The notes under the pieces: generated by a model
The model's database searches: none
Seen by the model: only the letters and a program-made list of their open reading frames with translations
What the model was told of the DNA's origin: nothing
Made by a program: the position numbers and the translations under genes
Shown here: piece by piece, positions 1-36,278 of the stretch
How the letters are laid out: each line of letters starts with the position of its first letter
How positions within the stretch are numbered: the first letter of the stretch is position 1
NCBI GenBank assembly: GCA_965223545.1
Contig: OZ245006.1
Coordinates: 5,248,001 to 5,312,000, forward strand
DNA length: 64,000 bases
Source of the DNA: Planctomycetota bacterium
Lineage (GTDB): Bacteria; Planctomycetota; UBA1135; UBA2386
Direction: 5' to 3'

Positions 1-1
1 C

Positions 2-259
2 GTGATCGACGCCTTGCTGCGGTTGGCAACAGCGCGCACGACGCTGATCGTCACCCACGACTACGAGCTCGCGCGGCGGGCCGATCGGGTGGTGGTGTTG
101 GCCGACGGTGGCATCGTCGAGCAGGGGCCGCCGGCCGAGCTCGCCGCGCGCGGCGGCGCGTTCGCGCGGTTGTTCGAGAGTGGCGCCCGCGGCGCCGGGG
201 CGAGGGCAGTGAGACCGTCCAGCGGCGGCGTGGCGCGCGAGCGCGGAGGCGACGAATGA
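2..259 (+). CDS. ABC transporter ATP-binding protein, C-terminal fragment (exporter type), 5'-truncated by window
   Basis: H-loop LIVTHD and IVEQGPPAELAARGGAFARLF tail typical of fused ABC exporters; stop overlaps next start (ATGA). Confidence 0.8.
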   Translation: MIDALLRLATARTTLIVTHDYELARRADRVVVLADGGIVEQGPPAELAARGGAFARLFESGARGAGARAVRPSSGGVARERGGDE

Positions 260-2028
260 AGATCGTGTTGGTCTGGCGGCGGACGGGTGCGGCGGAGCCC
301 GCGGCGGCCGTGGGAGAGCGGCTGTGTGCGCACTTCGAGCCGGTGCTCGCCGAGCGTCCGGCGCTGCGGCACTGGTCGGTGGGGGCTACCGAGGTGGTGT
401 TGGCGCAGCTGCCGGTGCCGACTTGGCGGCGGGCGTTCTGCGACGAAGACGGCGAGCGCTTCGCGGTCGCGCCGGACTACCCGCTCAACCTCGAGGCGGC
501 GGGCGTGCTGGATCATCGCTGCGAGCGCGCGCCGTTGCTGCAGCTGGCGGATCGGCTGGCGCGGGATCCCGAGCCCGTCCTCGCCGAGCTGGCGCCGCCG
601 TTCTCGTGTGTCTGGAACGAGCCCGAGACCGGGGGCTTGCGCCTGCAGGTCGACGGCCTGGGGCAGTCCAACTGGTTCGAGCATCGCGGTGAGCACGTAT
701 GGGCGGTGACCAATCGGATCGGCGCGCTGCGCGCGCTCGGCGTGGAGCTGCGGCCGGTCGCCGAGGAGTGGGCGACGCGGTTCGCGCTGGGCTGGTTTCC
801 GGCGGACCAATCCGGCTACGCGGGGGTGCGTGTGGTGGCGCCGGGCACCCAGATCTGCGCGGACCGCGACGGCGTGCGGCATCGCCGGCTCGACGTGCTG
901 TCCGGCTGGGTCCATCCGGACCCAGCCATCGCCGCGGATCATCTCGAGGCCGGCCGGCGTTCGATCGTCGAGCTGCTGGCGGAAGTCGCGCCGCTGTGGG
1001 AGCGGGCGACCGTCGGCCTGTCCGGCGGCCGCGACAGCCGCGCGGTGACCGCGGTGCTGCGCTCACTCGAGGCGCGCTTCGACTTGCGGGTGCGCGGGCA
1101 TCCCGAGCGGTTGGACGTGATCATCGCCCAGCGCCTGGCCGAGATCGCCGGGTTGCCGATTCGGGTCAGCAGCACGAGTGCGCTGCCGCCCGACAGTGCG
1201 GATGGCTGTCGGAGCAGCGTGGAGTCCGCGCTGGTGTGGCAAGACGGCTACATGACCGCGCTCAAGCACAAGACCTTCCTCGCCAAGGGCAAGCTGCTCG
1301 ATGGCGGAGTGGTCAACGTCATGGGGCAGCACGCGGGCATCGGCAAGGGCGACTTCGCCGCGCAGATCCGCGCCGATCAGCTGCCGCCCGAGGCCTACGA
1401 GGACGCGCTGGTCGCCTCGCTGTTGCGCGGCGTGCCGGCGATGTTCCAGCCACACGTGCTGGCGGCGGTCGAGGAGAGGGTGCGCCACGCCTATCGCCAG
1501 GCTGCGCAGTTCGGTGTCGACGAGGGCCTACACCGTCTGCACTTCTTCTTCCTCTACGAGTACACGCGGCGCTGGGGCGCGGCGACCGTGGGCTCGCAGA
1601 CCGGGCTGGTGATCGCGCCGTTCTTGAACCCCGGGTTCATTCGCGCCGCCTACGCCGCGCCGCCCGAGTCGATCACCGCGCGGCCGTTCCACGGCCACAT
1701 CACGGCGCACCACGCGCCCGACTGGGTCGGCGAGCCGATCGAGAGCGAAGTGCCGCCGGAAGACGTCAAGGCCGGCAAGTATCCGCCGCGCGGGCCGATC
1801 CCCGACGAGCTGAACCACCGACCCCGCTGGCACACGCGCGGCGGCTGGCGCAAGTACGACCACGTGCGCTACTGGCGCGCGGTGGGGGCCCCGCTGGTCG
1901 AGGAGGCGCTGGACGAGCAGGGCTGGTGGACCGAGATCTTCGATCCGAACGCGGTCGCGGCGGCGTGGCAGAAGAAGAAGGGGGTCGCCGACGCGGCGGT
2001 CATCGCGCACCGGGTCGGGCGGCGATGA
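256..2028 (+). CDS. Asparagine synthetase-like ATP-dependent amide ligase (no N-terminal catalytic Cys)
   Basis: PP-loop GLSGGRDSR, APFLNP motif near C-terminus, degenerate Ntn-like N-half; starts MKIVLV rather than MC. Confidence 0.7.
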   Translation: MKIVLVWRRTGAAEPAAAVGERLCAHFEPVLAERPALRHWSVGATEVVLAQLPVPTWRRAFCDEDGERFAVAPDYPLNLEAAGVLDHRCERAPLLQLADRLARDPEPVLAELAPPFSCVWNEPETGGLRLQVDGLGQSNWFEHRGEHVWAVTNRIGALRALGVELRPVAEEWATRFALGWFPADQSGYAGVRVVAPGTQICADRDGVRHRRLDVLSGWVHPDPAIAADHLEAGRRSIVELLAEVAPLWERATVGLSGGRDSRAVTAVLRSLEARFDLRVRGHPERLDVIIAQRLAEIAGLPIRVSSTSALPPDSADGCRSSVESALVWQDGYMTALKHKTFLAKGKLLDGGVVNVMGQHAGIGKGDFAAQIRADQLPPEAYEDALVASLLRGVPAMFQPHVLAAVEERVRHAYRQAAQFGVDEGLHRLHFFFLYEYTRRWGAATVGSQTGLVIAPFLNPGFIRAAYAAPPESITARPFHGHITAHHAPDWVGEPIESEVPPEDVKAGKYPPRGPIPDELNHRPRWHTRGGWRKYDHVRYWRAVGAPLVEEALDEQGWWTEIFDPNAVAAAWQKKKGVADAAVIAHRVGRR

Positions 2029-3158
2029 TCGAGCCCCGCGGCTTTCTGCGGCAGGCGCGCGAGGCGGGCTTCGACTTCGCGACCGGCGTGCCCTGCTCGA
2101 TCCTGACCGGCTTGATCAATGCGGCTCTCGGCGAGGCCTCGTTTCGCTACGTCGGCGCCGCCAACGAAGGCGATGCCGTCGCGATCGCCGCCGGTGCCGA
2201 GCTCGGCGGGCGGCGGGCGATCGTGCTGTCGCAGAACTCGGGGTTCGGCAACGCGGTCAACCCGCTCACCTCGCTGTCGATCCCGTTCGCGATTCCGTGC
2301 CTGTTCGTCACCACCTGGCGCGGCGAGCCCGACGGCGCGCCGGACGAGCCGCAACACGAGGTCATGGGCCGGATGACGCCGGCGCTGTTCACGCAGATGG
2401 GGCTGCCGTTCGAGATCTGCAGCGGCGATGCCTCGGAGTTGTCGGCGATGTTCGCACGCGCGCTCGCGCACATGCAGCAGCACGGAACGCCGTACGGGCT
2501 GATCGTGCGCCGCGGCAGCTTCGCCAAGGAGGCGCTCGACGAGACCGCACCGATGAGGCCCCCGACGTTGCGACCCGAGCCGATGCCGGCCACCTGGAGG
2601 CCGCAGTCCGTCGATGACGTGCTCGCTCGCGTTCGCGCCGCCGCCGGCTCGGGGGACGTGCTGCTGGCGACGACTGGCTTCACCGGCAGGGCGCTCTACG
2701 CGCTCGGCGATCGCGCAAGCCAGCTCTACATGGTCGGCTCGATGGGATGTGTCTCGAGCCTCGGGCTCGGCCTGGCGGTGGCCTGCCCCGAGCGCCGGGT
2801 CGTCGTGCTCGACGGCGATGGGGCTGCCCTGCTGCGGTTGGGCGCCCTCGCCACGATCGGCTACGAACGGCCGCCGAATCTGACGCACGTCCTGCTCGAC
2901 AACGGCGTGCACGACTCCACCGGCGGCCAGCAGACGGTGATGCGCTCGGTCGACATCGGCGCGGTCGCTGCCGCATGTGGCTACCCGGAGGTGCACCGCG
3001 CGGTCGAGCTGGATGCAGTTGGGGATGCGGTCGCGGGTGCGCGGCAGCTGACGTTCGTCCACGTGCGCACCGCGCCGCGCGGCGGGCGCGGACTGCCGCG
3101 GCCGGAGATCGCGCCGCGGGAAGTGGCGCGCCGGCTGCGCGGGTGGTTGGCGGGGTAG
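2025..3158 (+). CDS. aepY: Phosphonopyruvate decarboxylase (ThDP-dependent) homologue
   Basis: GVPCS, ANEGDAVA, QNSGFGNAVNPLTSL, WRGEP..DEPQH, YMVGSMG, ThDP motif GDGA..N, DSTGGQ; ATG 2025 overlaps the upstream stop. Confidence 0.92.
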   Translation: MIEPRGFLRQAREAGFDFATGVPCSILTGLINAALGEASFRYVGAANEGDAVAIAAGAELGGRRAIVLSQNSGFGNAVNPLTSLSIPFAIPCLFVTTWRGEPDGAPDEPQHEVMGRMTPALFTQMGLPFEICSGDASELSAMFARALAHMQQHGTPYGLIVRRGSFAKEALDETAPMRPPTLRPEPMPATWRPQSVDDVLARVRAAAGSGDVLLATTGFTGRALYALGDRASQLYMVGSMGCVSSLGLGLAVACPERRVVVLDGDGAALLRLGALATIGYERPPNLTHVLLDNGVHDSTGGQQTVMRSVDIGAVAAACGYPEVHRAVELDAVGDAVAGARQLTFVHVRTAPRGGRGLPRPEIAPREVARRLRGWLAG

Positions 3159-3184
3159 CGAGAAAATCGAGTCAGACTCGGTAC
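3157..3184 (-). repeat. REP-like element (GTAC + hairpin), degenerate copy between convergent genes
   Basis: Reverse complement gtaccgagtctgactcgattttctcgct resembles 43257-43284 gtacggagtccggctcgattctctcgct. Confidence 0.6.
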
Positions 3185-4293
3185 TACCCGCGCATGGTGT
3201 GGAGTGCGTCGGCGATGGCGGCGAGCAAGCGGCGGACGTCTTGTTGGTCGAGGGCGCCGATCGTGCCGATGCGGAACGAGGGTTCCTTGGAGAGGACTCC
3301 CGGGTAGATGAGCAGTCCTCGGGCCGAGAGGAGTTCGTACAGGGCGGCGAACGAGAACTTCTCGTCGGGGAGGTTGCGGAAGGCGGTGATGACGGGACTC
3401 TGATGGTCGCGGGCGACCAGCTCGTCGAAGCCGAGAGCGCGCATTCCGTCCCGCAACAGTTCTTGGTTGGCTCGGTAGCGGGCGCCTCGGGCGGCGACGC
3501 CGCCCTCGGCTTCGAGCTCGTCGAGGGCTGCCGCGAACGCGAGGATCGCGTGCGTCGGCGGCGTGAAGCGGAACTGGCCGTTGCGCTGCAGGCCCTGCCA
3601 CTGCGCGTGTAGGTCGAGGGTCAAGCTGCGCGGCGCGCGTTCTGCCGAGCGCAGCGCGTCGCGGCGAAAGACGACGAGGGCGAAGCCCGGCACGCCCTGG
3701 ATGCACTTGTTGGACGACGCGATCAGGTAGTCGATGCGATCGCGATCGACGTCGATGGGGACCGCGCCGAACGAGCTCATCGCGTCGACGATGAGGCCGA
3801 CGCCGTGCGTGGCGGCGACCTCGGCGACCTCGGCCAGCGGGTTGAGGATGCCGGTCGTGGTCTCGCAGTGGACCAGGGCGATGTGGCTGCAATCCGGCGA
3901 CGCCGCCAACCGGCGGGCGACGACATCGGGCGCCACCGGCTCGGTCTCGGGCCATTCCTCGATGGCAGTGTCGACGCCGTGGATGCGGGCAATCTCGGCG
4001 AGGCGCCGGCCGTAGACGCCGTTGGCCAACACCAGCAGCCGCGCACCCTCGGGAAGTCCGCTACAGCAGACCGCCTCGACGCCGAACGTGCCGCTGCCCT
4101 GCACCAGCACCGCGTCGTGGGCATCGCCGCCGCCGGCGAGCCGCACCAGGCGGCGCCGGACTCCGGCGACGAGATCGATGAACTCGCGATCCCGGGAGCC
4201 GACGTCGCGCAGCATCGCGCGCTTGACGGTGCCACTCGTCGTCAGCGGGCCGGGGGTGAAGAGCAGCTTGTCGGGCTCGGGTTCGGTGGTCAC
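3184..4293 (-). CDS. phnW: 2-aminoethylphosphonate:pyruvate transaminase (PhnW/AepZ family, PLP)
   Basis: LLFTPGPLTTS, HCETTTGILNP, DAMSSFG, SSNKCIQGVPG (PLP Lys), QFRFTPPTH; GTG start at 4293 with AAGAGG RBS. Confidence 0.92.
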   Translation of the reverse strand: MTTEPEPDKLLFTPGPLTTSGTVKRAMLRDVGSRDREFIDLVAGVRRRLVRLAGGGDAHDAVLVQGSGTFGVEAVCCSGLPEGARLLVLANGVYGRRLAEIARIHGVDTAIEEWPETEPVAPDVVARRLAASPDCSHIALVHCETTTGILNPLAEVAEVAATHGVGLIVDAMSSFGAVPIDVDRDRIDYLIASSNKCIQGVPGFALVVFRRDALRSAERAPRSLTLDLHAQWQGLQRNGQFRFTPPTHAILAFAAALDELEAEGGVAARGARYRANQELLRDGMRALGFDELVARDHQSPVITAFRNLPDEKFSFAALYELLSARGLLIYPGVLSKEPSFRIGTIGALDQQDVRRLLAAIADALHTMRG

Positions 4294-4409
4294 GGTACGC
4301 CTCTTGATCGGACCGACAGCTGCAACTCGTGGTCCGCTATGTTGGCACGCGCGGCGGCGTCCGTCTTCCGGGCCCGGTGGGCTGCGCGGCACGCACCGGG
4401 AGCAACACC

Positions 4410-4790
4410 ATGAACAACCGACTGCACATCGCCCTCAACGTTCGTGATCTGGAGACTTCGACCGCCTTCTACGAGGCCGTGTTCGCGCTGGCGCCCGACA
4501 AGGTCCGTGATGGCTACGCGCGCTTTACTCTCGATGATCCACCCCTGGTGCTGGCGCTCAACGCGAAAGACGAGGTCCGCGACGGCAATCGCGTCGGCCA
4601 CCTAGGGGTGCGCCTCGGTGCCGATGGCGATCTTTCGGTCATGCGCAGTCGCTTGGCGGCCCGCGACCTGATCCACAAGGAGCAGACCCGCACCAAGTGC
4701 TGCCACTCGGTGCAGAACAAGCTCTGGGTGGTGGATCCGGACGGCAACTACTGGGAATTCTACGAACTGGTTGCCGACCACGTGTCGTAG
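4410..4790 (+). CDS. arsI: ArsI/CadI family VOC metalloenzyme (putative organoarsenical C-As lyase)
   Basis: RLHIALNV..S.AFY, GHLG, vicinal CC (TKCCHSVQNKLWVVDPDGNYWEFY). Confidence 0.85.
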   Translation: MNNRLHIALNVRDLETSTAFYEAVFALAPDKVRDGYARFTLDDPPLVLALNAKDEVRDGNRVGHLGVRLGADGDLSVMRSRLAARDLIHKEQTRTKCCHSVQNKLWVVDPDGNYWEFYELVADHVS

Positions 4791-4924
4791 CACCGTGGTT
4801 CGCCGTGGCCTTGGTTCCGAGGCCCCGCGTTTGAGAACGCTACGGCCGCGTCCGGCGTCCGGACGCGCCCGGGTCCCGCCGCGGCCGAGTTCCCGTGGCA
4901 TGTGGGTTGCCGCGTGGTGCTGCG

Positions 4925-5743
4925 ATGAGATACGTGTTCCTGGCCGTTGCCGCGCTCGCCCTGGCGGCGATCTCGTCGGTCTCGTTCGGTGCCGAGAAGC
5001 GCTTCTTGGTCACCGGCTCGAGCACGGTGGCGCCGATCCTGCAGGCAGTGGCCGACCGCCTGGCCGAGGCGCAGCCCGCGCTTCTGCTCGACGTGCAGAC
5101 CGGGGGCAGCAGCCGCGGGATTCGCGACGTCCGCGATGGTCTGAGCGACGGCGGGATGGCGTCGCGTGACCTGGACCCGGAAGAGGCGGTGGGCATCCAG
5201 GTCCGGCCGGTCGCCTACGACGGCATCGCCCTGATCGCGCACCGGGACAACCCCGTGCGTGGCCTGACGACCGAGCAAGTGCGGCAGCTGTTCACCGGCG
5301 CTGCGCAGAGCTGGGCTGTGGTCGGCGGTGCGGACTCTCCGGTCCACGTCGTGAGCAAGGCCGAGGGCCGTGCGACGCTGGCGGTGTTCTTGGACTATTT
5401 CGACCTCGACAGCCGGGCGGTGGACGCCGACGCGGTCGTCGGCGACAACGCGCAAGGCGTGCGTCTGGTCGCCGGCAACCCGGACGCGTTGGGCTACGTC
5501 AGCGTGGGCGAGGCGCTGACCGCCGTCACCATGGGCGAGCCGATTCGGCTGCTGGAGCTCGACGGCGTCGCGCCGACTCTGGAGTCGGTCGCCAGCGGGA
5601 GCTACTCGGTGCGGCGCACGCTCTACGTGCTGTTCCCGCCGGAGTCGCCGATCGCCGATCGCATCTGCGGCTTCCTGGCCGGTGCGGAGGGTGCGCGCCT
5701 GATCGAGTCGCTGTCCTTCGTGCCCTGCGCGAAGCCCGAGTGA
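4925..5743 (+). CDS. pstS: PstS-like phosphate/oxyanion ABC substrate-binding protein
   Basis: Signal peptide, GSSTVAP, GGSSRGI, MASR, AYDGIA, ALGYVS. Confidence 0.85.
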   Translation: MRYVFLAVAALALAAISSVSFGAEKRFLVTGSSTVAPILQAVADRLAEAQPALLLDVQTGGSSRGIRDVRDGLSDGGMASRDLDPEEAVGIQVRPVAYDGIALIAHRDNPVRGLTTEQVRQLFTGAAQSWAVVGGADSPVHVVSKAEGRATLAVFLDYFDLDSRAVDADAVVGDNAQGVRLVAGNPDALGYVSVGEALTAVTMGEPIRLLELDGVAPTLESVASGSYSVRRTLYVLFPPESPIADRICGFLAGAEGARLIESLSFVPCAKPE

Positions 5744-5767
5744 AGGCGAGGAATTGGGCGTACTATC

Positions 5768-6619
5768 ATGGCTCAGCTGACCGTGCTGCACCGCGCCGGC
5801 GGCGAGCCGCGCACCGGCTGGGCCGCGATCGGCGGGCTGGGACTGCTCGCAGCTTGTGCGCTGCCGGCGGTGGTGGTCTTCCTGGCCGCCGTCGGTTGGG
5901 ACCTGCTGGCCAGCGGCCGCGCCGGCAGTCTGCTCGGAGCGGAGTGGTTTCCCACGCACGGCGCCTTCGGCTTGGCACCGTTGGTCGCCGGCACGTTGTG
6001 CACATCGGTCTTGGCGCTGGCGGTGACGGTGCCGGTCGGGCTCGGCGCCATCATCTACCTGCACTTCTTCGCCGGCCGTCGCGTGCAGCGGCTTGGCGAC
6101 GCCACGCTCGGTGTGCTCGGCGGCACGCCTTCGGTGGTGTTCGGCCTGTTCGGTACCGTCTGGCTGGTGCCGCTGGTCGGGCCGAGCCTGCTCGCCGCGG
6201 TGTTGGTGTTGTCGGTGATGGTGTTGCCGACGTTCGCCCTCTTGGGGCTGGCGGCGTTGCGGCAGGTTCCGCCGACGCTGTTGTCGGCGGGGGCCGCCCT
6301 CGGACTGCGGCGCGAGCAGGTGATTGCGCGGTTGGCGTTGCGCGTCGCGCGCCCTCACCTGGCGGCGGCGGCGACCGTTGCCCTGGCGCGCTGTCTCGGC
6401 GAGGCGTTGGCGGTGGAGATGGTGTGCGGCAACGTGGCGGCGCTGCCGTCGGGGTTGACGGCGCCGGTGCGCACGCTGACCACGACGCTGGTGCAGGAGT
6501 TCGACTACGCGCGTGCCGAGCACAACCAGGCGCTGCACCTCGTCGCGCTGACCGTGGTCTCCCTGGCGGCGATCGCCAGCTTGGCGGCGGTGCGCTGGCA
6601 GGCGCGGAGGATGTCGTGA
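5768..6619 (+). CDS. pstC: PstC-like ABC permease
   Basis: Multi-TM, FGLAPLVAGT, TPSVVFGLFG, ARCLGEALAV, RTLTT. Confidence 0.8.
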   Translation: MAQLTVLHRAGGEPRTGWAAIGGLGLLAACALPAVVVFLAAVGWDLLASGRAGSLLGAEWFPTHGAFGLAPLVAGTLCTSVLALAVTVPVGLGAIIYLHFFAGRRVQRLGDATLGVLGGTPSVVFGLFGTVWLVPLVGPSLLAAVLVLSVMVLPTFALLGLAALRQVPPTLLSAGAALGLRREQVIARLALRVARPHLAAAATVALARCLGEALAVEMVCGNVAALPSGLTAPVRTLTTTLVQEFDYARAEHNQALHLVALTVVSLAAIASLAAVRWQARRMS

Positions 6620-7413
6620 AGTGGCTCGGCGCGGGTTGCCTGGCGTTGGTCGGCCTGCTGTGCGCGGCCATGGTCGTCGACCTGGTGGCCGGCGGTTTCG
6701 GCGAGCTCTCGCTCGACTTCGCCGTCGCCGCCGCGCGCGACAGCGGTCGGGCCGGCGGCATCGGTGCCGTCGTGTTGTCCACCGTCCTGGTTGCGGTGCT
6801 GGCCATCTCGATCGCCGCGCCGCTGGCGCTGGCGGCGGCGGTGTTGTGCGCGGAGGGGTTGCGGCGTCGCCCGCGCGCCGCGCGCTGCTTGCGCGGTGGG
6901 TTCGAGGTGATGGTCAGCGTGCCGTCGGTGGCGATCGGCTTGGTCGGCTGGACCCTGTTCGGGCGCGGCCTGGGGCTGGGGTTCTCGCTGCTCGGCGGGG
7001 CGTTGACGCTGGCGCTGATGCTGGCGCCGGTGATGACGGTGGCCTTCACCGCCGGGCTCGAGCGGGTGCCGACGGCGTTGCGCCGCGCCAGTCTGGCGCT
7101 CGGCGTGTCGCGCTGGGACACGCTGTGGCGGCAGGTCGTTCCGGCGGCGCGGCCGGCCTTGTTGGCGGGCGTCGCGCTGGCGTTGGGACGGGCGACGGCG
7201 GAGACCGCGGCCCTGGTCCTGACCTCCGGAGTGTCCCTGAGAGTGCCGGGTTCGATCCTCGACCCTGGTGCGACGCTCGCGGTCCACGTCTACAACATGG
7301 CGCGCAACGTGCCCGGCGGCGAACCGCGCGCGTACTCCGCGGCGCTGGTCTTGCTGGCCATCAACGTCGCGGTGTTCGCCACGATCTCGCGACTGCAGCA
7401 CGGAGTTCGGTGA
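6616..7413 (+). CDS. pstA: PstA-like ABC permease
   Basis: GGIGAVVLST, VPSVAIGL, ASLALGVSRW, GRATAETAAL, TLAVH; GTGA overlap with pstC. Confidence 0.8.
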   Translation: MKWLGAGCLALVGLLCAAMVVDLVAGGFGELSLDFAVAAARDSGRAGGIGAVVLSTVLVAVLAISIAAPLALAAAVLCAEGLRRRPRAARCLRGGFEVMVSVPSVAIGLVGWTLFGRGLGLGFSLLGGALTLALMLAPVMTVAFTAGLERVPTALRRASLALGVSRWDTLWRQVVPAARPALLAGVALALGRATAETAALVLTSGVSLRVPGSILDPGATLAVHVYNMARNVPGGEPRAYSAALVLLAINVAVFATISRLQHGVR

Positions 7414-8297
7414 TGCTGACGTTCGAACGAGTCTCGGTGGTCGGCTGTGGCGTGCGGATCGTCGACGGCCTCGATCTGGCGCTGCCGGAGCGCGGCACCG
7501 CGGTCATCCTCGGCCCGTCGGGATGTGGCAAGACCACGCTGCTGCGCTGTGCGATTCGCGAGGACGAAGACGATCCCGACCTCAGCTTCTCCGGCGTCGT
7601 CCGGCTGCGCGGCCGCGACGTGCGCGAGCGCGGTCTCTCCGTGCACCACCTGCGCCAGCAGGTCGGGCTGGTGCTGCAGACGCCGGTGGCGTTTCCGGGG
7701 ACCGCGTTCGACAACGTCACCTTCGCCCTGCAGTGCACCACGTCGTTGGCCAAGGCCGAGATCGACGAGCGAGCGGCGCGCGCGCTGGCCGAGGTCGGGC
7801 TCGAGCCCGAGCACCACGCGACGCGGGCGGTCAGCCTGTCCGGAGGCCAGCTGCGGCGGCTGTCGATCGCGCGCACGGTGGCCCTGGACCCCGCCGTGCT
7901 GTTGATGGACGAGCCGTCGGCCGGCCTCGATCCGCTGGCGGTGGCGCGACTCGAGCATTTGGTGCGCACTCTCTCCCGGCGCCGTTTGGTCGTCATCGTC
8001 ACCCACGACGTCGAGCTGGCGCGGCGCATCGCCGACGAAGTCCACTTCCTGTGGCCCTTCCCGGATGGTTGCCGGCTGGTCGAATCCGGCAGCGCGGCGC
8101 AGCTCTTGGATGCGCCGCAGCGGTCCGAGACGCGGCTGTTCATCGACGCGGCGACGCGTGGCGCGGCCGCGCTCGCCGAGCTCGGCGGTCGCATCGAAGA
8201 CTCCGACGCAGAAGAGTGTCTACCGCGCCGCATTCGCTTGAAGGGACCGGTGACCGCGCCGTCGAGCCGGCCCGCTGGTTCCGCCAAACTCCCCTGA
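7413..8297 (+). CDS. pstB: PstB-like ABC ATPase
   Basis: Walker A GPSGCGKTT, LSGGQ, LLMDEPSAGLDP, IVTHD. Confidence 0.82.
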   Translation: MLTFERVSVVGCGVRIVDGLDLALPERGTAVILGPSGCGKTTLLRCAIREDEDDPDLSFSGVVRLRGRDVRERGLSVHHLRQQVGLVLQTPVAFPGTAFDNVTFALQCTTSLAKAEIDERAARALAEVGLEPEHHATRAVSLSGGQLRRLSIARTVALDPAVLLMDEPSAGLDPLAVARLEHLVRTLSRRRLVVIVTHDVELARRIADEVHFLWPFPDGCRLVESGSAAQLLDAPQRSETRLFIDAATRGAAALAELGGRIEDSDAEECLPRRIRLKGPVTAPSSRPAGSAKLP

Positions 8298-8306
8298 CCG
8301 ATCACC

Positions 8307-9605
8307 ATGCAAGTCCTCTCCACTCTCTCGCCGTTGCGCCACAAGAGCGCGCGTCCGTTCGTCGCCCGCATCCCGGGATCCAAGTCGTTCACCAACCGGG
8401 CGCTTCTGCTGGCCGCCTCGCGGGTCGGCGAGACCCGAGTCGTCGGCGGTCTGCACTGCGATGACACCGATCGGCTGAGCGAGGCGCTGGACTCCTTCGC
8501 CGGGCTCGAGGTCGCCAAAGTCGACGATGGGTTCTCGGTGCGTCGCGAGGCGGACCGAGTCGGAGCACCGGCGGAGCCGTGCTTCATGGGCGGGGCCGGC
8601 ACGCCGGCGCGGTTCATGCTGGGGTTTGCTGTCAGCGCCGAGGGCGAGACGGTGGTGACCGGTGTGCCGCGGCTGTGTGAGCGGCCGATGCAGGACATTC
8701 TCGACGCGCTGACCGGAATGGGAGTCGAGCACACGCCGCTCGGGGAGCCCGGACACTTGCCGACGCGGGTCCGCGGTGGGGTCGTGGGTGCGCGCGAGTG
8801 GACCATCGACGGTGGCATCTCGTCGCAGTTCACCAGCTCGCTCTGCCTGCTGGCCGCGCAGCAGCCGGACGGACCGGTGCGCATTCGCATCCGGGGCAAC
8901 CAGGTGTCGCAGCCTTACGTCGAGATGACGTTGGCGATGATGCGCGACTGCGGCATCCGCGCGCAGCGCGTCGAGCCCACCTTGATCGAGGTGCACCCGG
9001 GTCGTCCTACCGGCGACACGATTCCGGTGGAGTGCGACGCCAGTGGCATGTCCTACTACCTCGCGGCTGCGGCAGTGACCGGCACCACCGTCGAGATCCC
9101 CGGCATCGGCGAGGGCTCCGCGCAGGGAGATGTCGGGCTGGCGCGCGCCTTCGAGCGCATGGGGTGCACGGTGCAGATGAGCGGCGATCGCATCGTGATC
9201 ACCGGTGGGCCTTTGCGCGGCATCGACATCGACATGGAGGAGATGCCGGACGTGGTGCTGACCTTGGCGGCGGTGGCGGCCGTCGCGACCGGAAGCACGC
9301 GCATCACCAACATCGCCAACTTGCGGGTCAAGGAGTGCGATCGCATCAATGCCGCCGCGCGCGAGCTCGAGCGATTGGGGGTCGGGGTCGAGGAGGGCGA
9401 CGACTTCTTGGTCATCCACCCCGCGCCGCTGCGGCCTGCCCGGATCAACACTTATGACGACCACCGCGTGGCGATGGCGTTCTCGGTGCTCTCGCTGGTG
9501 TCTGCCGGGATCGAGATCGAGGACCCGGGGTGCGTGGCCAAGTCGTTCCCCGACTACTGGGCGGAGTTCGATCGCTTTACCCGGCATCACAACGAGGACC
9601 GCTGA
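8307..9605 (+). CDS. aroA: EPSP synthase family enolpyruvyl transferase (AroA or neofunctionalised paralogue)
   Basis: PGSKSFTNR, GTPARF, SSQF, PYVEMT, QGD, RVKECDRI, DDHRVAMAF, KSFPDYW. Confidence 0.9.
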   Translation: MQVLSTLSPLRHKSARPFVARIPGSKSFTNRALLLAASRVGETRVVGGLHCDDTDRLSEALDSFAGLEVAKVDDGFSVRREADRVGAPAEPCFMGGAGTPARFMLGFAVSAEGETVVTGVPRLCERPMQDILDALTGMGVEHTPLGEPGHLPTRVRGGVVGAREWTIDGGISSQFTSSLCLLAAQQPDGPVRIRIRGNQVSQPYVEMTLAMMRDCGIRAQRVEPTLIEVHPGRPTGDTIPVECDASGMSYYLAAAAVTGTTVEIPGIGEGSAQGDVGLARAFERMGCTVQMSGDRIVITGGPLRGIDIDMEEMPDVVLTLAAVAAVATGSTRITNIANLRVKECDRINAAARELERLGVGVEEGDDFLVIHPAPLRPARINTYDDHRVAMAFSVLSLVSAGIEIEDPGCVAKSFPDYWAEFDRFTRHHNEDR

Positions 9606-9614
9606 GGCAACGTG

Positions 9615-11087
9615 ATGATGCAGCACAAGGCCTGTCTGTTGGTGCTCGATGGCGCCGGCTACACCAGTGAGAGTGCTGGCAACGCGGTGCGTCCCGACAC
9701 TCTGCCGACGGTGTTCGCGGCGATGCGCGAGCATGGATTTGCCGTGCTCGAGGCCTCGGGAACCGCGGTGGGGCTCGAGGAAGGGCAGGTCGGCAACTCC
9801 GAGTCCGGCCACATGACCTTGGGTGCGGGGCGTGTCGTGCCCTGCATGACGCGGCGCATCGATGAAGCTTTTCGCGGCGGCACCTGGGCGGCGGATCCGG
9901 GATGGGCGCCTGCGGTCGAAGCCGGTGTGCTGCACGTCGTCGGTCTGTTGTCGGACGCGGGCGTGCACGGTCTGGTCCGGTCGATCGAGCAGGCGGTGCA
10001 TACCGCGGCGGCCGCGGGGGTGGCCGAGATCTTGGTGCATCCGATCCTGGACGGAGTCGACTCCGTGGCCGGCAGTGCGCCGGAGCTGTTGGCCGGGTTG
10101 CTGGATCGGCTTGCCGGGGTCGAACGCTGTCGGCCCGGAATCGTCATCGGTCGCAAGTGGTGCTGCGATCGCAGCGGTGACCTGAGCGTGACGCGGGTCG
10201 CGACCGCGGCGTTGGCGAGCTCTGCGGATCTGCCGATCGGCGATCTCGACACCGTCCGCGACCACGTCGCGCGCACCGGCGGAGAGGCCGACTTCCCGGC
10301 CCACGCATTCGCCGGCGGCCGCGGCATCGGTGCCGGTGAGCCGGTGCTGATCACCAGCCACCGCGCCGACCGCGCGCGGCAGCTGGCGGGTGTGCTCGCC
10401 GAGACCCAACCGCTGCTGATGCTGGTCGACCCCGGCGAGGGCGTCGATGTGCAGCACGTGTTCTTCCCCACGGAGACGGTTGGCGCGGGCGTGGCGAGCG
10501 TCCTGCAGGACGCTGGCGTGCGCTCGGTGCGGGTCGCGGAGAAGTGCAAGTTCCCGCACGTGACGTTCTTCTTCAACGGCTTCACCAAAGGCGGCGAAGG
10601 CGAGCGCGTCTGCGTGCCGACGATCGCCGAGGCCGAGATCCCGGGTCAGCCCGAGATGGGGGCCGCCGCGGTGACCGCGCAGGTCACCGCGGCGATGGCC
10701 GACCCGTCGCGCCAGGCGATCGTCGCCAACCTCGCCAACCTCGACCAGGTCGGGCACCTCGGCCGCATCGACCTGGCGGAACGCGCGGCGGCCGCGGTGG
10801 ACGCCGCGTTCGCCCAGATCGTGGCCAGCGCGCGCCAGCACGGCTGGACCGTGCTGGTCACCGCCGACCACGGCAACGCCGACTGCGTCGAAAAAGACGG
10901 CCGGCCCTTCGGCTCACACACGCACTGCCCGGTCCCGTTCTTCATCGTCCCGCCCACCAAGCACCGCGTCCTCTGGAACGAGCAGCGCGGATCCCTCGCC
11001 AACGTCGCCGCGTCCTTCCTCCAAGCCCTCGGCCTACGACCCACCCCCGCCATGCACCCCCCCCTGGCCGAAGTCCACGCCCACTGA
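9615..11087 (+). CDS. Cofactor-independent phosphoglycerate mutase (iPGM) homologue, divergent
   Basis: LVLDG, ASGTAVGL..GQVGNSE.GH (catalytic Ser), SDAGVH, RADRARQ, HVTFFFNG, DQVGH, TADHGNA, SHT; several substrate-site substitutions. Confidence 0.85.
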   Translation: MMQHKACLLVLDGAGYTSESAGNAVRPDTLPTVFAAMREHGFAVLEASGTAVGLEEGQVGNSESGHMTLGAGRVVPCMTRRIDEAFRGGTWAADPGWAPAVEAGVLHVVGLLSDAGVHGLVRSIEQAVHTAAAAGVAEILVHPILDGVDSVAGSAPELLAGLLDRLAGVERCRPGIVIGRKWCCDRSGDLSVTRVATAALASSADLPIGDLDTVRDHVARTGGEADFPAHAFAGGRGIGAGEPVLITSHRADRARQLAGVLAETQPLLMLVDPGEGVDVQHVFFPTETVGAGVASVLQDAGVRSVRVAEKCKFPHVTFFFNGFTKGGEGERVCVPTIAEAEIPGQPEMGAAAVTAQVTAAMADPSRQAIVANLANLDQVGHLGRIDLAERAAAAVDAAFAQIVASARQHGWTVLVTADHGNADCVEKDGRPFGSHTHCPVPFFIVPPTKHRVLWNEQRGSLANVAASFLQALGLRPTPAMHPPLAEVHAH

Positions 11088-11129: not shown

Positions 11130-12401
11130 TCACGGCACGGGCTGGCGGGGTGCGTCGTGGCGCCGGAGGGCGGCGCGGGCTGGTTTGAGACCGCCGGTGT
11201 CCGGCAGATGCCAGAAGGCGACCGGGACTTTGAAGCGGGCGAGGCGCCGCTGGAGTCGCCGGCGCAGATCGGCGGCGGTTGGCGGCGCGTCGGGGCGCAG
11301 CGCGAGGTAGGCGGCGGGGCGGTGGCCGAACTCGGCGTCTTCGACCGGGACGACGACGGCGTCGACGACGGCGTCGAGCTCGAGGAGCGCGGCCTCGATC
11401 TCGGCGGGGTGGACGTTCTCGCCGCCGGAGATGAAGACCTCGTCCATGCGGCCGTCGACGTAGAGGCGCCCGTCGGCATCCAGCCGGCCGACATCGCCGG
11501 TGGAGTAGCTGCCGTCGTCGTTCACGCCGCGCTGCAGTCGGTCGCCTTCGAGATAGCCGGCGAACAGCGCGTCGCCGCTCGCGATGATCTGGCCCCGGCC
11601 GTCGAGCGCGACGCGCCAGCCCGGAATCGGTCGGCCCGCGCATCCGGCGCGCAGCAGGTGCTCCGGCTCGCGTTCGGCGGCGAGCATGCCGCAGGTCTCG
11701 GTGGCGCCGTAGCTGACGATCGGGGCGAGTTCCGCTTCGATCGCCCGGCGCCGGAGTGCGGGCGGCACCGGCCCGCCGCCCAGCAGGATCGTGCGCACCG
11801 GCCGCAACGCGTCGACCGCGTCCTCGTCGAGCAGCCGCTGCAGTTGGGTGGCGACCAGTGAGACGTGGGTCGGCCGCGCGCGGCGCAGCGCTGCGGCAAG
11901 CCCTTCGCGATCTCGCATGAGTGCGCACTGCGCGCCGCGCACCAGCGTGCGGAACAGCACCGCCAACCCACTCACGTGGTGCAGTGGAAGGGTCAGCAGC
12001 CAGCGGTCTCCCGTTTCCAAGCCGAGCCAAGTGCCGGATCGATCGGCCGCGCGGAAGTGTTGCGCCAGCGAGTGCGCCGCGAGCCGCGGAGTGCCGCTGC
12101 TCCCCGACGTGGCGATCACCGTCGCGATCCCCGGCGGTGCCACACACTTTGTCAACCGGCGCGCGATCGCCCCTTCCCGTGGCTCGCTGGGGGGGACCAG
12201 CGCGGTGGTGCCGCCGCCGTCCCAGGTGGACAACAGGTCCGCGATCCCGCGCGCATCGGCGCGCGCTCGCAGCACCGCGGTCGAAGGCCGCCGCTGCGTC
12301 AAGAGATCGCGGACCGCGTAGCACCGCTCGCCGTCGTCCAGCCAGGTCGCGTCCGTCCGGCCGGCGAGCGCCTCGGCCAAGTGGGACCGCGGAGCGCTCA
12401 A
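11130..12401 (-). CDS. menE: o-succinylbenzoate-CoA ligase
   Basis: AMP-binding TSGSSGTP, LPLHHVSG, SYGATET, TGDVG, SGGENVHP; TTGA overlap with menC. Confidence 0.85.
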   Translation of the reverse strand: MSAPRSHLAEALAGRTDATWLDDGERCYAVRDLLTQRRPSTAVLRARADARGIADLLSTWDGGGTTALVPPSEPREGAIARRLTKCVAPPGIATVIATSGSSGTPRLAAHSLAQHFRAADRSGTWLGLETGDRWLLTLPLHHVSGLAVLFRTLVRGAQCALMRDREGLAAALRRARPTHVSLVATQLQRLLDEDAVDALRPVRTILLGGGPVPPALRRRAIEAELAPIVSYGATETCGMLAAEREPEHLLRAGCAGRPIPGWRVALDGRGQIIASGDALFAGYLEGDRLQRGVNDDGSYSTGDVGRLDADGRLYVDGRMDEVFISGGENVHPAEIEAALLELDAVVDAVVVPVEDAEFGHRPAAYLALRPDAPPTAADLRRRLQRRLARFKVPVAFWHLPDTGGLKPARAALRRHDAPRQPVP

Positions 12402-13477
12402 CGCTGCAGGCCGTTGGCGTCGGCCGGAGCCATGACCGCATCGGACAGCCGCAGCGTTCCCCCGGCCGAGGAGAAGCGCGGCGCGATCACATCGGCTGCC
12501 AGCCATCGGTCGGTCGCCAGGCCGGCGGCGCGCTGCTCGACCATCGACGCGGCGAGGTGGGTCAGGGTCCACAGGCCGAGGCCGCTCTCGAAACACGAGG
12601 ACACCACGCAACCGATGCCGCGCTCCACGGCGCGCGCGCCGATCTTCATCGACTCGAGCAGCGCGCCGTGGCGGGACGGTTTGAGCACCCAAGTCGTGAT
12701 TCCCGGGCCGTGCCGCCAGTCCTCTTCGCCCTCTGCCAGCGGAATGTCCAGACTCTCGTCCAGCGCGATGCGCACGCCGGCGCGGCGGTGGAGGGTGCGC
12801 AGCTCGGCGGGGTCGCGCAGCGGCTCTTCGAAGTACTCGATCCGATCGACATCGATGCCGTCGACCAACGCGCACGCATCACCGAGCTGCATGGCGCGGT
12901 TGGCGTCGAGTCGCAGCAGCACTCCCTCGGGCAGCTCGGTCAGCAGCAGCGACAGCAGCAGGCGCTCTTCGTCCGGCGGCCGCCGGCCGACCTTGACCTT
13001 GACCGCCGCGTAGCCGCGCAGCTCACCGGCGTCGAGAGCGCCGCGCGCCGCCGCCAAGTCGCCGTCGAGCAGCGCGTTGACCGGCACTTCGGCGGCGGGC
13101 GCCGGGCTCAACTGGTGCGCCAGATCCGTGCCGCGCTGCGCCGCCCGCAGGTTCAGCCAGGCCGATTCCAAGCCGAAGCGCACCGATGGCATGAGACCGG
13201 GGGTACCCGTCATCTTGTCCAGCGCGCTGGAGTCCGCGCTGTCGGTCCCCGGCAAGCCACGGCTCAGCGCGTCCGCCGCCGCCCGTGCCTCGGCGAAGGT
13301 CTCGCCGTGGATCCCCGGCAAGGGAGCGATGTCGCCGTGGCCTCGGGTTCCGTCGCTGTCGGTCAGCGTCAGCACGACGCCAGCGCGCTCGCGCAGCTCG
13401 TGGTCGCCGATGCTCAGACGGCGGCGCAGGGGCAAGGTGTAGTCCGACAACGAGACCGCGGCGATGTCCGTACTCAT
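12398..13477 (-). CDS. menC: o-succinylbenzoate synthase
   Basis: Enolase superfamily: APLPG, KVKVG, RLDAN, EYFEEP, ALDES, VLKP. Confidence 0.88.
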   Translation of the reverse strand: MSTDIAAVSLSDYTLPLRRRLSIGDHELRERAGVVLTLTDSDGTRGHGDIAPLPGIHGETFAEARAAADALSRGLPGTDSADSSALDKMTGTPGLMPSVRFGLESAWLNLRAAQRGTDLAHQLSPAPAAEVPVNALLDGDLAAARGALDAGELRGYAAVKVKVGRRPPDEERLLLSLLLTELPEGVLLRLDANRAMQLGDACALVDGIDVDRIEYFEEPLRDPAELRTLHRRAGVRIALDESLDIPLAEGEEDWRHGPGITTWVLKPSRHGALLESMKIGARAVERGIGCVVSSCFESGLGLWTLTHLAASMVEQRAAGLATDRWLAADVIAPRFSSAGGTLRLSDAVMAPADANGLQR

Positions 13478-14247
13478 GCAGGCGGGGCGAGATGCAGGCT
13501 GAGGAACTCGTCTACCATAGCGGCCAGTGGTCCGGGTGCCTCGGCTGGCACAGCGTGTCCCGCATCGCCAATCGCGGCGAACCGCGCCGAGGGCAGCTCG
13601 CTGGCGAGCGCGCGGCCGATCGCCGAAAACTTGTCATCCAGCGCACCGGCGATCAGCAGCAGAGGGCGTCGGGCGGCGTGCAGCCCGGGGCGCAGATCGG
13701 GCTGCATGCCCGTGCCGAACACCTCGAGGGCGCGCGCCAGCTGCTCGCCGTCGCCGCCGCGCCGCCGGGCCCGCACCGCGTCGAAGCCGGCCGCGTTCGC
13801 CAGCGATGTGAACAGCGGCTGCGCGTACCATTGATCGAGGAACGCGTCGAGGCCGCCGCGCAGCGCGGCGGCGTGCCGGGCATCGGCCCGGCGGCGGGCA
13901 TCGCGCGCGGCCGGCGAGCGCAGGCCCGGGTGTGCGCCGATGGCGACCACGGCGCGGACCAGGTCGGGATCGGCGGCCGCCAGTGCCAGCGCGAGACGGC
14001 CGCCCATCGAGTAGCCCACCAGCGCGCATCGATCGATCGCGCGATCGCGCAGCATGCGGCGGACCTGCTCCACGCCGCCGGCGAAGTCGGTGTCGAGCAC
14101 CGGATCGGGCGAACGACCGTGGCCGGGGAGGTCGATGGCGATGCCGGCCAGTCGGGGGCGCAGAGCACGGCGGACCTCGGCGAAGTCCTCGGCACAGCCG
14201 AGAAAGCCGTGCAACCAGACCACCTGCACGCCGGCAGGCTGCGTCAT
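13474..14247 (-). CDS. menH: SHCHC synthase (alpha/beta hydrolase)
   Basis: LHGFLG, DLPGHG, GYSMGGR, WYAQPLF, D.KF, AGH. Confidence 0.9.
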   Translation of the reverse strand: MTQPAGVQVVWLHGFLGCAEDFAEVRRALRPRLAGIAIDLPGHGRSPDPVLDTDFAGGVEQVRRMLRDRAIDRCALVGYSMGGRLALALAAADPDLVRAVVAIGAHPGLRSPAARDARRRADARHAAALRGGLDAFLDQWYAQPLFTSLANAAGFDAVRARRRGGDGEQLARALEVFGTGMQPDLRPGLHAARRPLLLIAGALDDKFSAIGRALASELPSARFAAIGDAGHAVPAEAPGPLAAMVDEFLSLHLAPPA

Positions 14248-16007
14248 CGCCGCGCGCCGGTGGCCGCGTCGGCCGCCAGCCGCTGGAGGGACTGCTGCAA
14301 TGCAGCGCTGCTGCCTGCGTCGATCCGCGCTTCGATCACTGCGGGCGAGTCGGATTTCAGGGCGGCCCGGACCGCCTCCCCGAACGCGGCGCGATCGTCG
14401 ACCGCTCGGTAGGCCAGATCGAAGTCCGCGCAGACCCCACCGAAGCCGAAGCCGTGACCGCCGTCGAAGTACGGCGTCAACACCCCGTCGCAGGCGGCGA
14501 TCGGCAGCTGGTGGAAGATGCCGCCGCCGAAGTTGTTGAGCAGGACGACGAGCATCTTTGGGGCGAGCTCGCGCAGCAGAACGAGGCTGTTGAGGTCGTG
14601 GATCAACGCCTGGTCGCCGATCAGCAGCGTGGTGCGCTCGCCGGTGGCGTGGGCGAAGCCGACCGCGGTCGCCAGCAATCCGTCGATGCCGCTGACGCCG
14701 CGATTGCTGGCAATGCGCAGCTCCGGGCCGCCGCGGACGCCGTACTGATCGAGGACGCGGATCGCCAAGCTGTTGGCGGCGAACAGGCACGACCGCGGCG
14801 GGAGGTGCGCGCTGAGCCAGCGCGCGATCCACGGTTCTGCCAGCGGCGAGCGCTCCAGAGTGTCATCGAGCGCCGCGCCGACCGCCGCGTCGGCCTGGCG
14901 CCACGTCGCGGGCACGTGGTCCGCACGCGGCGCGCCGCCGCCCAGCAGTGCCGCGGCGGTCGCCTCGGCCCAAGGCCCCGGTTCGGCGCGCACCCACGCC
15001 CGCGCCCGATGGCCCGGATCGACCCTCACGGGTTGCTCGCCGACGACGACCAGCGCCGCGCCGGAGGACTCGAGCAGGCGGCCGAGTGCGGTCGCGGTCG
15101 GTCGATCGCCGAGCAGCAGGACGATCTCCGGCGGCTGCGCGCAGTCCGCGCCGAAGCAGAGTTCGGCGTGCGGCAGCAGAAGGGGGTCGCTGGGGCCCAG
15201 TCGCAGCCCACTGCGAATGTCGGCGCGGACCGGCCAGCCGAGCGCGCGGGCGAGGTCGAGCACCGCGTCCCGCGGCCCGGCGCCGCCGCCGGCGACCACG
15301 AGTCCGCGGCGACGCGGGTTCAACAGGTCGGCGAGCGTGTCGTCGATCGGCAGGGCCGCCGGGCGGTCGGTGGGGTAGCACGCCGTCAGCGGTTGTCGGT
15401 CGGTCAGCCAATCCTCGAGGCCGGCCAGGCAGTCCTGGTTCCAGGCCTCTTGCACCGGCGCCAGCGGCTCGCGCAGTCGGCAGTTGAGCTGCACGGGTCC
15501 GCGCTGCTCGCGTGCCCGGCCGAGCGCCGTGGCGGCGGCGCTGACCACGTAGCGCGCGGCGACGGTGTCGCTCGGCGCCGGCAGGTCGAGCGACCAGCGC
15601 AGGTGGTCGCCGAACAAGCCGGTCTGGCGGGTGGTCTGGTTGGCGCCGCAATCGTGCAGCTCGGGCGGCCGGTCTGCAGTCAGCAGCAGCAGGGGGGTCG
15701 GGTCGGCGGCGGCTTCCACCACCGCGGGCGCCAGATTGGCGACCGCCGTCCCCGACGTCGTGATCACGGCCGCCGGGACGCCGGTCGCACGCGCCACTCC
15801 GAGCGCCGCGAATGCCGCACCGCGTTCGTCACGGCAAACGAACACGCGCGCCTCGGGATTGCGGACCGCCGCGATCACCAGTGGAGTCGAGCGCGAGCCA
15901 GGCGCCACCACGAAATGACGCACGCCGCCGCGCACGAGCTCGTCGACCAACAGCCAGCACCACAGTGCGTTGATGTTGGGCAGTGCGCGCGGATCGACGG
16001 TGGTCAT
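14244..16007 (-). CDS. menD: SEPHCHC synthase
   Basis: PGSRSTPL, DERGAAF.ALG, TTSGTAVAN, TADRPPEL..GANQ, SNRGVSGIDG, NNFGGGIF. Confidence 0.93.
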   Translation of the reverse strand: MTTVDPRALPNINALWCWLLVDELVRGGVRHFVVAPGSRSTPLVIAAVRNPEARVFVCRDERGAAFAALGVARATGVPAAVITTSGTAVANLAPAVVEAAADPTPLLLLTADRPPELHDCGANQTTRQTGLFGDHLRWSLDLPAPSDTVAARYVVSAAATALGRAREQRGPVQLNCRLREPLAPVQEAWNQDCLAGLEDWLTDRQPLTACYPTDRPAALPIDDTLADLLNPRRRGLVVAGGGAGPRDAVLDLARALGWPVRADIRSGLRLGPSDPLLLPHAELCFGADCAQPPEIVLLLGDRPTATALGRLLESSGAALVVVGEQPVRVDPGHRARAWVRAEPGPWAEATAAALLGGGAPRADHVPATWRQADAAVGAALDDTLERSPLAEPWIARWLSAHLPPRSCLFAANSLAIRVLDQYGVRGGPELRIASNRGVSGIDGLLATAVGFAHATGERTTLLIGDQALIHDLNSLVLLRELAPKMLVVLLNNFGGGIFHQLPIAACDGVLTPYFDGGHGFGFGGVCADFDLAYRAVDDRAAFGEAVRAALKSDSPAVIEARIDAGSSAALQQSLQRLAADAATGARR

Positions 16008-33471: not shown

Positions 33472-33566
33472 TGCGTGCGAATCCGCCGATAGTTCACTCG
33501 GCGTCGTGCCAACGGCGGTGTCTGCCGCCCGCGCGTCGCGGTCGAGCCCTTGTGACGGGAGTCTAG

Positions 33567-36274: not shown

Positions 36275-36278
36275 TCGG

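Follow-up and report, generated by a model that had tools for sequence, protein, structure and literature searches.

A probable S-adenosylmethionine-independent arsonate biosynthesis cluster in a planctomycete genome

The stretch of planctomycete DNA analysed here, referred to as the window (64,000 nucleotides; contig OZ245006.1, positions 5,248,001 to 5,312,000), begins with a gene cluster, running from an ABC exporter to a divergent cofactor-independent phosphoglycerate mutase (iPGM), that is best explained as directing the biosynthesis of an arsonate, with its arsenic-carbon (As-C) bond formed independently of S-adenosylmethionine (SAM). From the sequence comparisons presented below we consider this explanation probable. 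The core of the cluster consists of homologues of 5-enolpyruvylshikimate-3-phosphate synthase (EPSP synthase; AroA), iPGM and phosphonopyruvate decarboxylase (Ppd), which are likely to carry out the As-C chemistry of BsnM, BsnN and BsnJ of the bisenarsan cluster up to arsonoacetaldehyde, and comparison of the remaining genes makes it somewhat probable that the pathway ends in 2-aminoethylarsonate and an amide conjugate of it. The window belongs to an 8.1-Mb assembly of two contigs, rated 91% complete (genome G000 of our set; C1:5248001-5312000), and a recheck of the open reading frames (ORFs) agreed with the gene calls, strands and junctions of the cluster in a preliminary description of the locus.

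The 2-hydroxyethylarsonate unit is reported to require all three of bsnM, which encodes a homologue of EPSP synthase, bsnN, for a phosphoglycerate mutase, and bsnJ, for Ppd; knock-outs of them abolish bisenarsan, and the proposed route leads from EPSP and As(V) via arsenoenolpyruvate and arsonopyruvate to arsonoacetaldehyde (PMC12159101). The published donor is thus EPSP with arsenate, in place of the phosphoenolpyruvate (PEP) with arsenate or arsenite that had been suggested for the present cluster. In the pathway that we propose here, arsenate would be imported by a Pst-like ABC system. AroA, working in reverse as published for BsnM, would convert EPSP and As(V) to arsenoenolpyruvate and shikimate-3-phosphate and would then remake EPSP from PEP; from this recycling we infer a net conversion of PEP and As(V) to arsenoenolpyruvate and inorganic phosphate. 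The same enzyme would additionally supply EPSP for chorismate, the native aroA having been lost. By analogy with BsnN and BsnJ, the iPGM homologue would shift arsenic from oxygen to C3, probably by means of Ser62 and the two-metal site, to give 3-arsonopyruvate, and Ppd would release arsonoacetaldehyde. The weakest steps are the last: an AepZ/PhnW-type transaminase may form 2-aminoethylarsonate, and an AsnB-fold ligase may couple this amine to a carboxylate. The carboxylate might belong to a molecule that is exported or displayed at the cell surface and that the kinase, the exporter and the outer-membrane protein encoded upstream would handle. An ArsI/CadI-family protein would protect against reduced, trivalent products. 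Of the As-C pathway as first outlined, the BsnMNJ-like core draws support from synteny, from two trees, from residue changes held in common and from the occurrence of the iPGM clade in arsenic islands, whereas the copy number of aroA, the donor and the universality of the ending had to be revised.

A search for the iPGM variant at E 1e-60 among 339 genomes of the class retrieved ten carriers, G000 included, in which the gene set recurs in rearranged form. Presence was counted by tblastn in stretches of 9-40 kb per carrier, two of which (G101, G102) were limited by contig ends. Ppd and the AsnB-fold protein are present in all ten, AroA in nine, the kinase in seven, the transaminase, ArsI/CadI and the PstSCAB-like importer in six each, and the exporter in three. 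Despite varying gene order, aroA and the iPGM gene are adjacent in 9/10 carriers, the tenth lying on a 1.6-kb contig. Given this recurrence in nine other genomes, the co-occurrence of the cluster genes exceeds chance. In a 251-genome sample of the phylum the iPGM variant was found only in G000, and it was not among the 25 of 46 plasmid matches listed; of 35 loci from a metagenome scan 2 were cluster loci, and a viral scan gave none. The match lists of AroA and iPGM have 32 of 119 entries in common by longest contig, a rough proxy of wider linkage.

The aroA gene (8307-9605, plus strand), proposed to encode an arsenoenolpyruvate synthase that also makes EPSP, scores 376 bits against TIGR01356 (cut-off 287). 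Its EPSP synthase site is intact, with 21 of 23 checked E. coli active-site positions identical, including the whole shikimate-3-phosphate site; N94G and P101F are the differences. The E. coli position list, and the iPGM residue numbering used below, are those we take to be correct, and the counts were computed from them. Replacement of N94 by G or A is found in 120/120 AroA sequences of the window clade, in 17 of 18 from Streptomyces-like clusters and, among 38 others, in one at most. In a quick tree search with 90 rows the window clade was sister to the Streptomyces-like cluster AroA (Shimodaira-Hasegawa-type (SH) support 99), a subset of 40 rows gave 87/98 (ultrafast bootstrap (UFBoot)/SH) for this grouping, and the approximately unbiased (AU) test just rejected a placement with E. 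coli-type AroA instead (p-AU 0.044). The reference set in these trees comprised 6-11 homologues from bisenarsan-type clusters, not SCO6819 itself. The best plasmid match, in Streptomyces sp. NBC_01708, is 47.7% identical (E. coli AroA, 40%) and its gene is paired with gpmI, next to pst, arsR, arsC and acr3; the closest named homologues of both AroA and iPGM of the window are labelled Planctomycetota.

The window AroA stands apart from the housekeeping branch, but no second canonical aroA was found in G000: the window gene is the only copy, the other PF00275 match in a whole-genome profile search being MurA, and aroB, aroC, aroE and a DAHP (3-deoxy-D-arabino-heptulosonate 7-phosphate)-synthase motif are present. 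In relatives of the same family (G001, G012 and G018) aroA lies between one gene and purC, whereas in G000, G015 and G007 this ancestral slot is empty, its two flanks being separated by 162, 96 and 47 nt. Since the flanks are both there and have closed up, the native aroA was lost and its absence through incomplete assembly can be ruled out, although the three genomes possibly do not represent independent losses and other family members carry aroA at further sites. In the sister family f10, to which seven of the carriers belong, a second aroA is kept in all five carriers tested. Since the window AroA branches apart from housekeeping orthologues, has an intact site and is accompanied by a second copy in the f10 carriers tested, it is better read as a real EPSP synthase that probably does both the EPSP and the arsenic jobs. 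This dual role fits the published reverse-reaction model, which requires the shikimate-3-phosphate site. The clade would in general still make EPSP, as is argued by iPGM-less members that stand as apparent sole aroA; more distant members occur in G010, G321 and G322. One of the iPGM-less genes (G038) lies beside genes for an outer-membrane protein, an exporter, a kinase and three glycosyltransferases, to which glycosyltransferases of G000 at C1:5646665-5650028 are related. In one AroA homologue (P0057, 731 aa) an ABC ATPase domain is part of the protein, consistent with a pstB-aroA fusion.

The iPGM gene (start 9612 or 9615, end 11087, plus strand) encodes the proposed As-C-forming arsenoenolpyruvate mutase. 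The full-genome search recommended at the outset located a separate conventional gpmI at C1:7526666, 31% identical to the window protein. The latter scores 285.8 bits against TIGR01307, under the cut-off of 330.65, and its set of glycolytic features is further incomplete through R153V, W195L and a Glu-to-Cys change before K336. Ser62, all metal ligands and R185, R191, R261, R264 and K336 are retained, and the model has a normal iPGM fold; searches by sequence and by fold matched only glycolytic iPGMs and no solved BsnN-like structure. D192 and W195 are lost in both cluster iPGM groups, where Y337 is mostly replaced by F; W195L occurs in 109 of 120 window-clade and 16 of 18 Streptomyces-like proteins, and W is kept in 74/75 others. 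With ordinary GpmI as background (79 of the 80 loci from a broad-pattern genome scan were of this kind), the window clade joined the Streptomyces-like cluster iPGM to the exclusion of housekeeping GpmI with SH support of 96 in a tree of 71 rows and UFBoot/SH of 99/98 in one of 37 rows, in which the bootstrap had not fully converged. Named members of the clade include Azospirillum soli, a Rhodospirillaceae metagenome-assembled genome (MAG) and a Nitrospiraceae MAG.

Window-clade iPGM is also encoded in 6 of 30 genomes of a gammaproteobacterial MAG family (G340, locus L031; 40% identity), with the same C-K-F-P-H and D-G-x-D-S signatures, and its gene lies behind pstSCAB wherever the contig reaches (5/6). 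The slot between a P1B-ATPase gene and pstS holds a window-clade aroA in G1046, G1041 and G340 (in G340 over two contigs), and in G1043, G1060 and G1042 (the last over two contigs) it holds genes for a divergent enolase, an ArsJ-associated glyceraldehyde-3-phosphate dehydrogenase (GAPDH; NF033735, 542.7 bits, cut-off 450) and a histidine phosphatase; the loci of G1046, G1043, G1041, G1060 and G1042 are L260, L262, L264, L268 and L271, respectively. The two arrangements are mutually exclusive, three versus three, and in the iPGM tree, where support is moderate, they interleave. Arsenite oxidase genes aioBA lie 5-12 kb upstream in all three contigs reaching that far; no ppd was seen at these loci, and a class I aminotransferase gene is present nearby. 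The enolase is 46% identical to that of S. viridochromogenes DSM 40736, which we take to be PhpH. PhpH is described as a recruited enolase that makes carboxyphosphonoenolpyruvate (PMC4748306). On the simplest reading of these sequences, AroA and the enolase trio would each furnish a single mutase with an enolpyruvyl ester of arsenate, the trio being a candidate second route to arsenoenolpyruvate. The arsenic link in these bacteria does not depend on the Streptomyces comparison.

In the latter comparison, a search with the NBC_01708 GpmI gave matches in 17 of 301 genomes of one genus, taken as Streptomyces by similarity. The 18 Streptomyces-like loci all contain AroA, its gene adjacent to that of iPGM; a CTP-synthase-like protein and ArsR are encoded at 17 each, PstS at 15, Ppd at 11, ArsC at 9, ArsI/CadI at 8, a class I aminotransferase at 7 and Acr3 at 6. 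Two of them (G882, G989) combine polyketide synthase (PKS), FabH-like protein and Ppd in the bisenarsan layout. Seven further loci (L029:6295-17810; L178, L198, L200-L202 and L208) lack ppd and have a class I pyridoxal phosphate-dependent aminotransferase and a Cys-rich GNAT/FemAB-like protein; by analogy with the phosphonoalanine branch of phosphonate metabolism, they possibly represent an arsonoalanine branch.

The ending of the pathway is less uniform than its head. The gene at 256-2028 (plus strand), predicted to encode an ATP-dependent amide ligase of AsnB fold (590 aa), overlaps both the exporter gene, which ends at 259, and ppd, which starts at 2025. Its product had no Pfam or NCBIfam match. 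In the ESM Atlas it is placed at 0.99 in Asn_synthase clusters, of whose members 17-71% carry the family; 4 of 50 aligned relatives match PF00733, and a profile match to beta-lactam synthetase was obtained at E 1.2e-4. The model (predicted local distance difference test score 94) matched TsnB9, CarA, AsnB and beta-lactam synthetase in Foldseek at E 1e-15 to 1e-12, and its fold supports a candidate amide ligase. Having no N-terminal Cys, and hence no glutaminase site, this ligase is likely to use an external amine rather than glutamine as nucleophile. The transaminase (PhnW/AepZ-family class V; 3184-4293, minus strand, with the longest ORF extending to 4392 and a likely start at 4293) scores 440.8 bits against TIGR03301 (cut-off 360.8); its gene converges on ppd and diverges from arsI over 116 nt. 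2-Aminoethylarsonate, the product named in the preliminary description, is likely here but not certain, because the amino branch (6/10 carriers) is less universal than the ligase (10/10). The same As-C head (AroA, iPGM, Ppd) could instead have another ending, in which arsonoacetaldehyde is oxidised or reduced by enzymes encoded elsewhere, the ligase activates an arsono-carboxylate such as arsonoacetate and the transaminase is accessory or catabolic. This would suit the lower count of the transaminase and its absence near the cluster in the four g80 genomes (a genus in which two of these stretches were cut short by contig ends), the two ligase copies each of G103 and G178, and the position of the transaminase gene on the strand opposite ppd. 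We nevertheless hold it to be rather unlikely, as the transaminase adjoins ppd or aroA in all six carriers that have it and forms one group of 52-57% identity, and the conserved neighbours include neither an aldehyde dehydrogenase nor a reductase.

Ppd (2025-3158, plus strand), the proposed arsonopyruvate decarboxylase, scores 375 bits against TIGR03297 (cut-off 312.5), and the cluster ppd is the only one in each carrier genome, including G000. PEP mutase (PepM) is absent, as noted from the window at first: in the whole of G000 the best match to TIGR02320 reached 36 bits (cut-off 319.55), and no pepM lies upstream of the window. Two PF13714 matches were excluded as pepM, one being the 36-bit isocitrate lyase/PEP mutase-family protein and the other an isocitrate lyase, and the EDK-x5-NS sequence, presumably the PepM motif, was not found in the predicted proteins of G000. 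pepM is likewise absent from G007, G072, G073 and G178, all at least 90% complete. In the other five carriers (G015 and G101-G104; in G104 split over contig ends) a pepM-nucleotidyltransferase fusion is found elsewhere in the genome, with no ppd adjacent (loci L242-L247), and in three of the g80 genomes it lies within a few kb of glycosyltransferase genes and of an exporter gene related to that of the window. Because of these orphan genes, the downstream half of the pathway may accept phosphonates too, and in such genomes a single Ppd may serve both the arsonate and the phosphonate head. Cluster-type ppd genes with no aroA, iPGM gene or pepM nearby (L237, L240 and L241 in G100, G150 and G149, that of G150 at a contig end) are probable cluster remnants.

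One could go further and suppose a PepM-independent phosphonate route, with the iPGM turning PEP into phosphonopyruvate, Ppd, AepZ and the ligase leading to 2-aminoethylphosphonate conjugates and the Pst system importing phosphate. Ppd and the transaminase do score as phosphonate equivalogs, Ppd is nearest to pepM-linked Ppd, and half of the carriers have an orphan pepM and no other ppd. Such a route is quite improbable all the same: PEP is already present in the cell and would need no such supply, so that the gammaproteobacterial context argues against it and the linked AroA, or the GAPDH, phosphatase and enolase trio, would be without a role, and the neighbouring genes for ArsI/CadI, AioBA and ArsJ-type GAPDH, together with the relation to BsnM and BsnN, point to arsenic. 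Most improbable is the absence of any shared pathway, with a xenologous housekeeping aroA feeding men and having as neighbours the relic of a phosphonate module and a cassette for arsenic resistance (e.g. for arsenate-ester export or hydrolysis), for while aroA is the sole copy in a genome with the other shikimate genes, has an intact site and has clade members standing alone in several relatives, it is adjacent to the iPGM gene in nearly all carriers and all Streptomyces-like loci and linked to it via pstSCAB in gammaproteobacteria, a second aroA is kept by the f10 carriers tested, ppd and the transaminase gene are intact without pepM, and men genes adjoin the cluster in one carrier of ten. 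The suggestion that a sole, housekeeping-type aroA might simply feed the men operon was right as to copy number and not as to branching.

Several observations weigh against the interpretation as an arsonate cluster. No ArsR, ArsC or Acr3 gene was found near the cluster. The sole aroA is not peculiar to G000, as G007 and G015 also have one (other TIGR01356 matches there reach 63-76 bits, like MurA in G000). In G021, G022 and G038 (L249, L250, L251) clade AroA occurs without iPGM as apparent sole copy, and AroA alone is thus not diagnostic of the pathway. The reference loci are homologues, not the S. lividans or S. coelicolor proteins themselves, and none of the 18 encodes a PhnW-type transaminase or an AsnB-like protein; in 4/10 carriers, too, the transaminase was not seen. 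The window iPGM is hardly closer to the Streptomyces protein (33% identity) than to the genome's own GpmI (31%), and the AU test does not reject a tree that joins it to the latter, long-branched sequence (p 0.18), long branches meeting there. R153V (111/120) and Cys184, Cys311 and Cys333 (106, 118 and 105 of 120) are found in the window clade only; the site of C311, adjacent to the equivalent of K336, is otherwise invariably Glu, and that these Cys residues hold arsenic is speculation. Ppd is nearer to planctomycete pepM-linked Ppd (49-57% identity) than to Streptomyces-like Ppd (40-44%) and forms its own group in the tree, which makes the cluster a mosaic. The PstS tree is unresolved, with long branches meeting.

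The arsenic and oxyanion genes that the cluster does hold are arsI/cadI and a PstSCAB-like importer, both on the plus strand. The ArsI/CadI-family vicinal oxygen chelate protein (4410-4790), a candidate C-As lyase for self-protection, scores 128.6 bits against NF041414 (cut-off 116) and has a His, His, Cys-Cys, Glu motif, retained in the five carrier and two Streptomyces-like homologues shown. The proposed arsenate importer (4925-8297; pstS 4925-5743, pstC 5768-6619, pstA 6616-7413, pstB 7413-8297) falls under the Pst cut-offs in all four proteins and is paralogous to the genome's own Pst operon (C1:5660462-5667091), with 23-34% identity. Only the 3' end of the exporter gene (1-259, plus strand; 623 aa) lies in the window, its start being at C1:5246388, and an APH-family kinase gene (at C1:5243324) and one for an alginate-export-type outer-membrane protein precede it, so that the upstream arm of the cluster reaches beyond the window start. 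No PKS or FabH-like gene was found in the cluster or up to 40 kb upstream, profile scans of the cluster proteins revealed no SAM enzyme, and no sigma-70 promoter match was found in the cluster DNA examined; a hairpin at 3168-3180, between the converging ppd and transaminase genes, is within chance. Downstream, menE, menC, menH, menD and menF (11130-17401, minus strand) are ordinary men genes that converge on the iPGM gene; as they occur near the cluster in G000 alone of the carriers, they were ruled out as members. Further along, a gene run at 30271-36800 ends in roadblock-like and MglA/MglB-like proteins and resembles, by eye from the translations, a gliding/polarity-type module. Elsewhere in G000, arsenosugar-type genes (C1:254010-255360 and C1:1072488-1073624) encode a TIGR04167 radical SAM protein that exceeds its cut-off, at a distance of 3 kb from the vacant aroA slot, and a fusion of a TIGR04283 glycosyltransferase with an ArsC-like domain. 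A tblastn search of G000 with a Streptomyces Acr3 query found no match.

A broader, tentative reading to which we give somewhat less than an even chance is that of a cross-phylum arsonate pathway built like phosphonate biosynthesis, with one iPGM-derived mutase and interchangeable modules on either side. Arsenoenolpyruvate would be supplied by a reversed EPSP synthase, able to replace the housekeeping aroA, or by an 'arseno-glycolysis' trio, and the ending here, an arsenic twin of ciliatine, would be 2-aminoethylarsonate in amide linkage with a molecule that is exported or lies on the cell surface; where pepM is present, phosphonates possibly pass along the same line. In the passages of the bisenarsan and earlier genome-mining papers that deal with distribution, the AroA/iPGM route is placed only in Actinobacteria (PMC4943196; PMC12159101), 26 such clusters being counted, all in mycelial members (PMC4943196), and in a review of 2026 bisenarsan is named as the first secondary metabolite confirmed to be an arsonic acid (PMC13728944). 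Our literature search found neither the route described beyond Actinobacteria, nor a natural pathway to 2-aminoethylarsonate, nor any account of the alternative with enolase, although supplements and the main Hoshino papers could already mention such homologues. A second class of natural arsonates is indicated by the cluster, which also widens the range of the route to probable planctomycetes and to Proteobacteria. It opens to test how a mutase of the alkaline phosphatase superfamily forms an As-C bond and whether a recruited AroA remains an EPSP synthase; the AroA/enolase swap is a natural test of arsenoenolpyruvate as mutase substrate, and the cluster is a candidate genetic source behind unidentified organoarsenicals in environmental speciation.

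Compared with beta-lactam synthetase, CarA, AsnB and TsnB9, the ligase candidate has the shared fold (template modelling score 0.47-0.66) and the SGGxDS ATP motif, but it is only 11-16% identical and is without the N-terminal Cys. The ArsI/CadI protein has the metal ligands and the vicinal Cys pair of ArsI, described as a C-As lyase (PMC6138428); NF041414, whose cut-off it exceeds, does not separate ArsI from CadI, and the lyase assignment is that of a candidate. As in 2-aminoethylphosphonate biosynthesis, examples of which were seen in G175, G094, G277 and G279, the cluster encodes a Ppd and an AepZ-type transaminase, both scoring above their equivalog cut-offs. That pathway consists of PepM, Ppd/AepY and AepZ; the window cluster has AroA and iPGM in place of PepM, and no nucleotidyltransferase. 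With the bisenarsan cluster (MIBiG BGC0001283) it shares aroA directly upstream of the iPGM gene, the presence of ppd, of a predicted ABC importer for oxyanions and of a gene related to arsenic, and the absence of pepM and of a SAM enzyme, and its AroA and, less firmly, its iPGM group with bsn-type homologues. It lacks the PKS, FabH-like protein, reductase, ArsR, ArsC and Acr3, and also the CTP-synthase-like gene, a third conserved marker of such clusters (PMC4943196, Fig. 4), for which only pyrG was matched in G000. The sequences thus suggest a cluster that works like BsnMNJ yet is not a bisenarsan cluster, two features of the family, the extra-copy aroA and the CTP-synthase-like gene, being absent. 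What sets it apart, beyond a non-actinobacterial host, is an iPGM of 33% identity with Cys residues of its own, a Ppd of planctomycete phosphonate stock and an AroA that is the sole EPSP synthase, to which an AepZ/PhnW transaminase, an AsnB-fold ligase, an APH kinase and an exporter are added.

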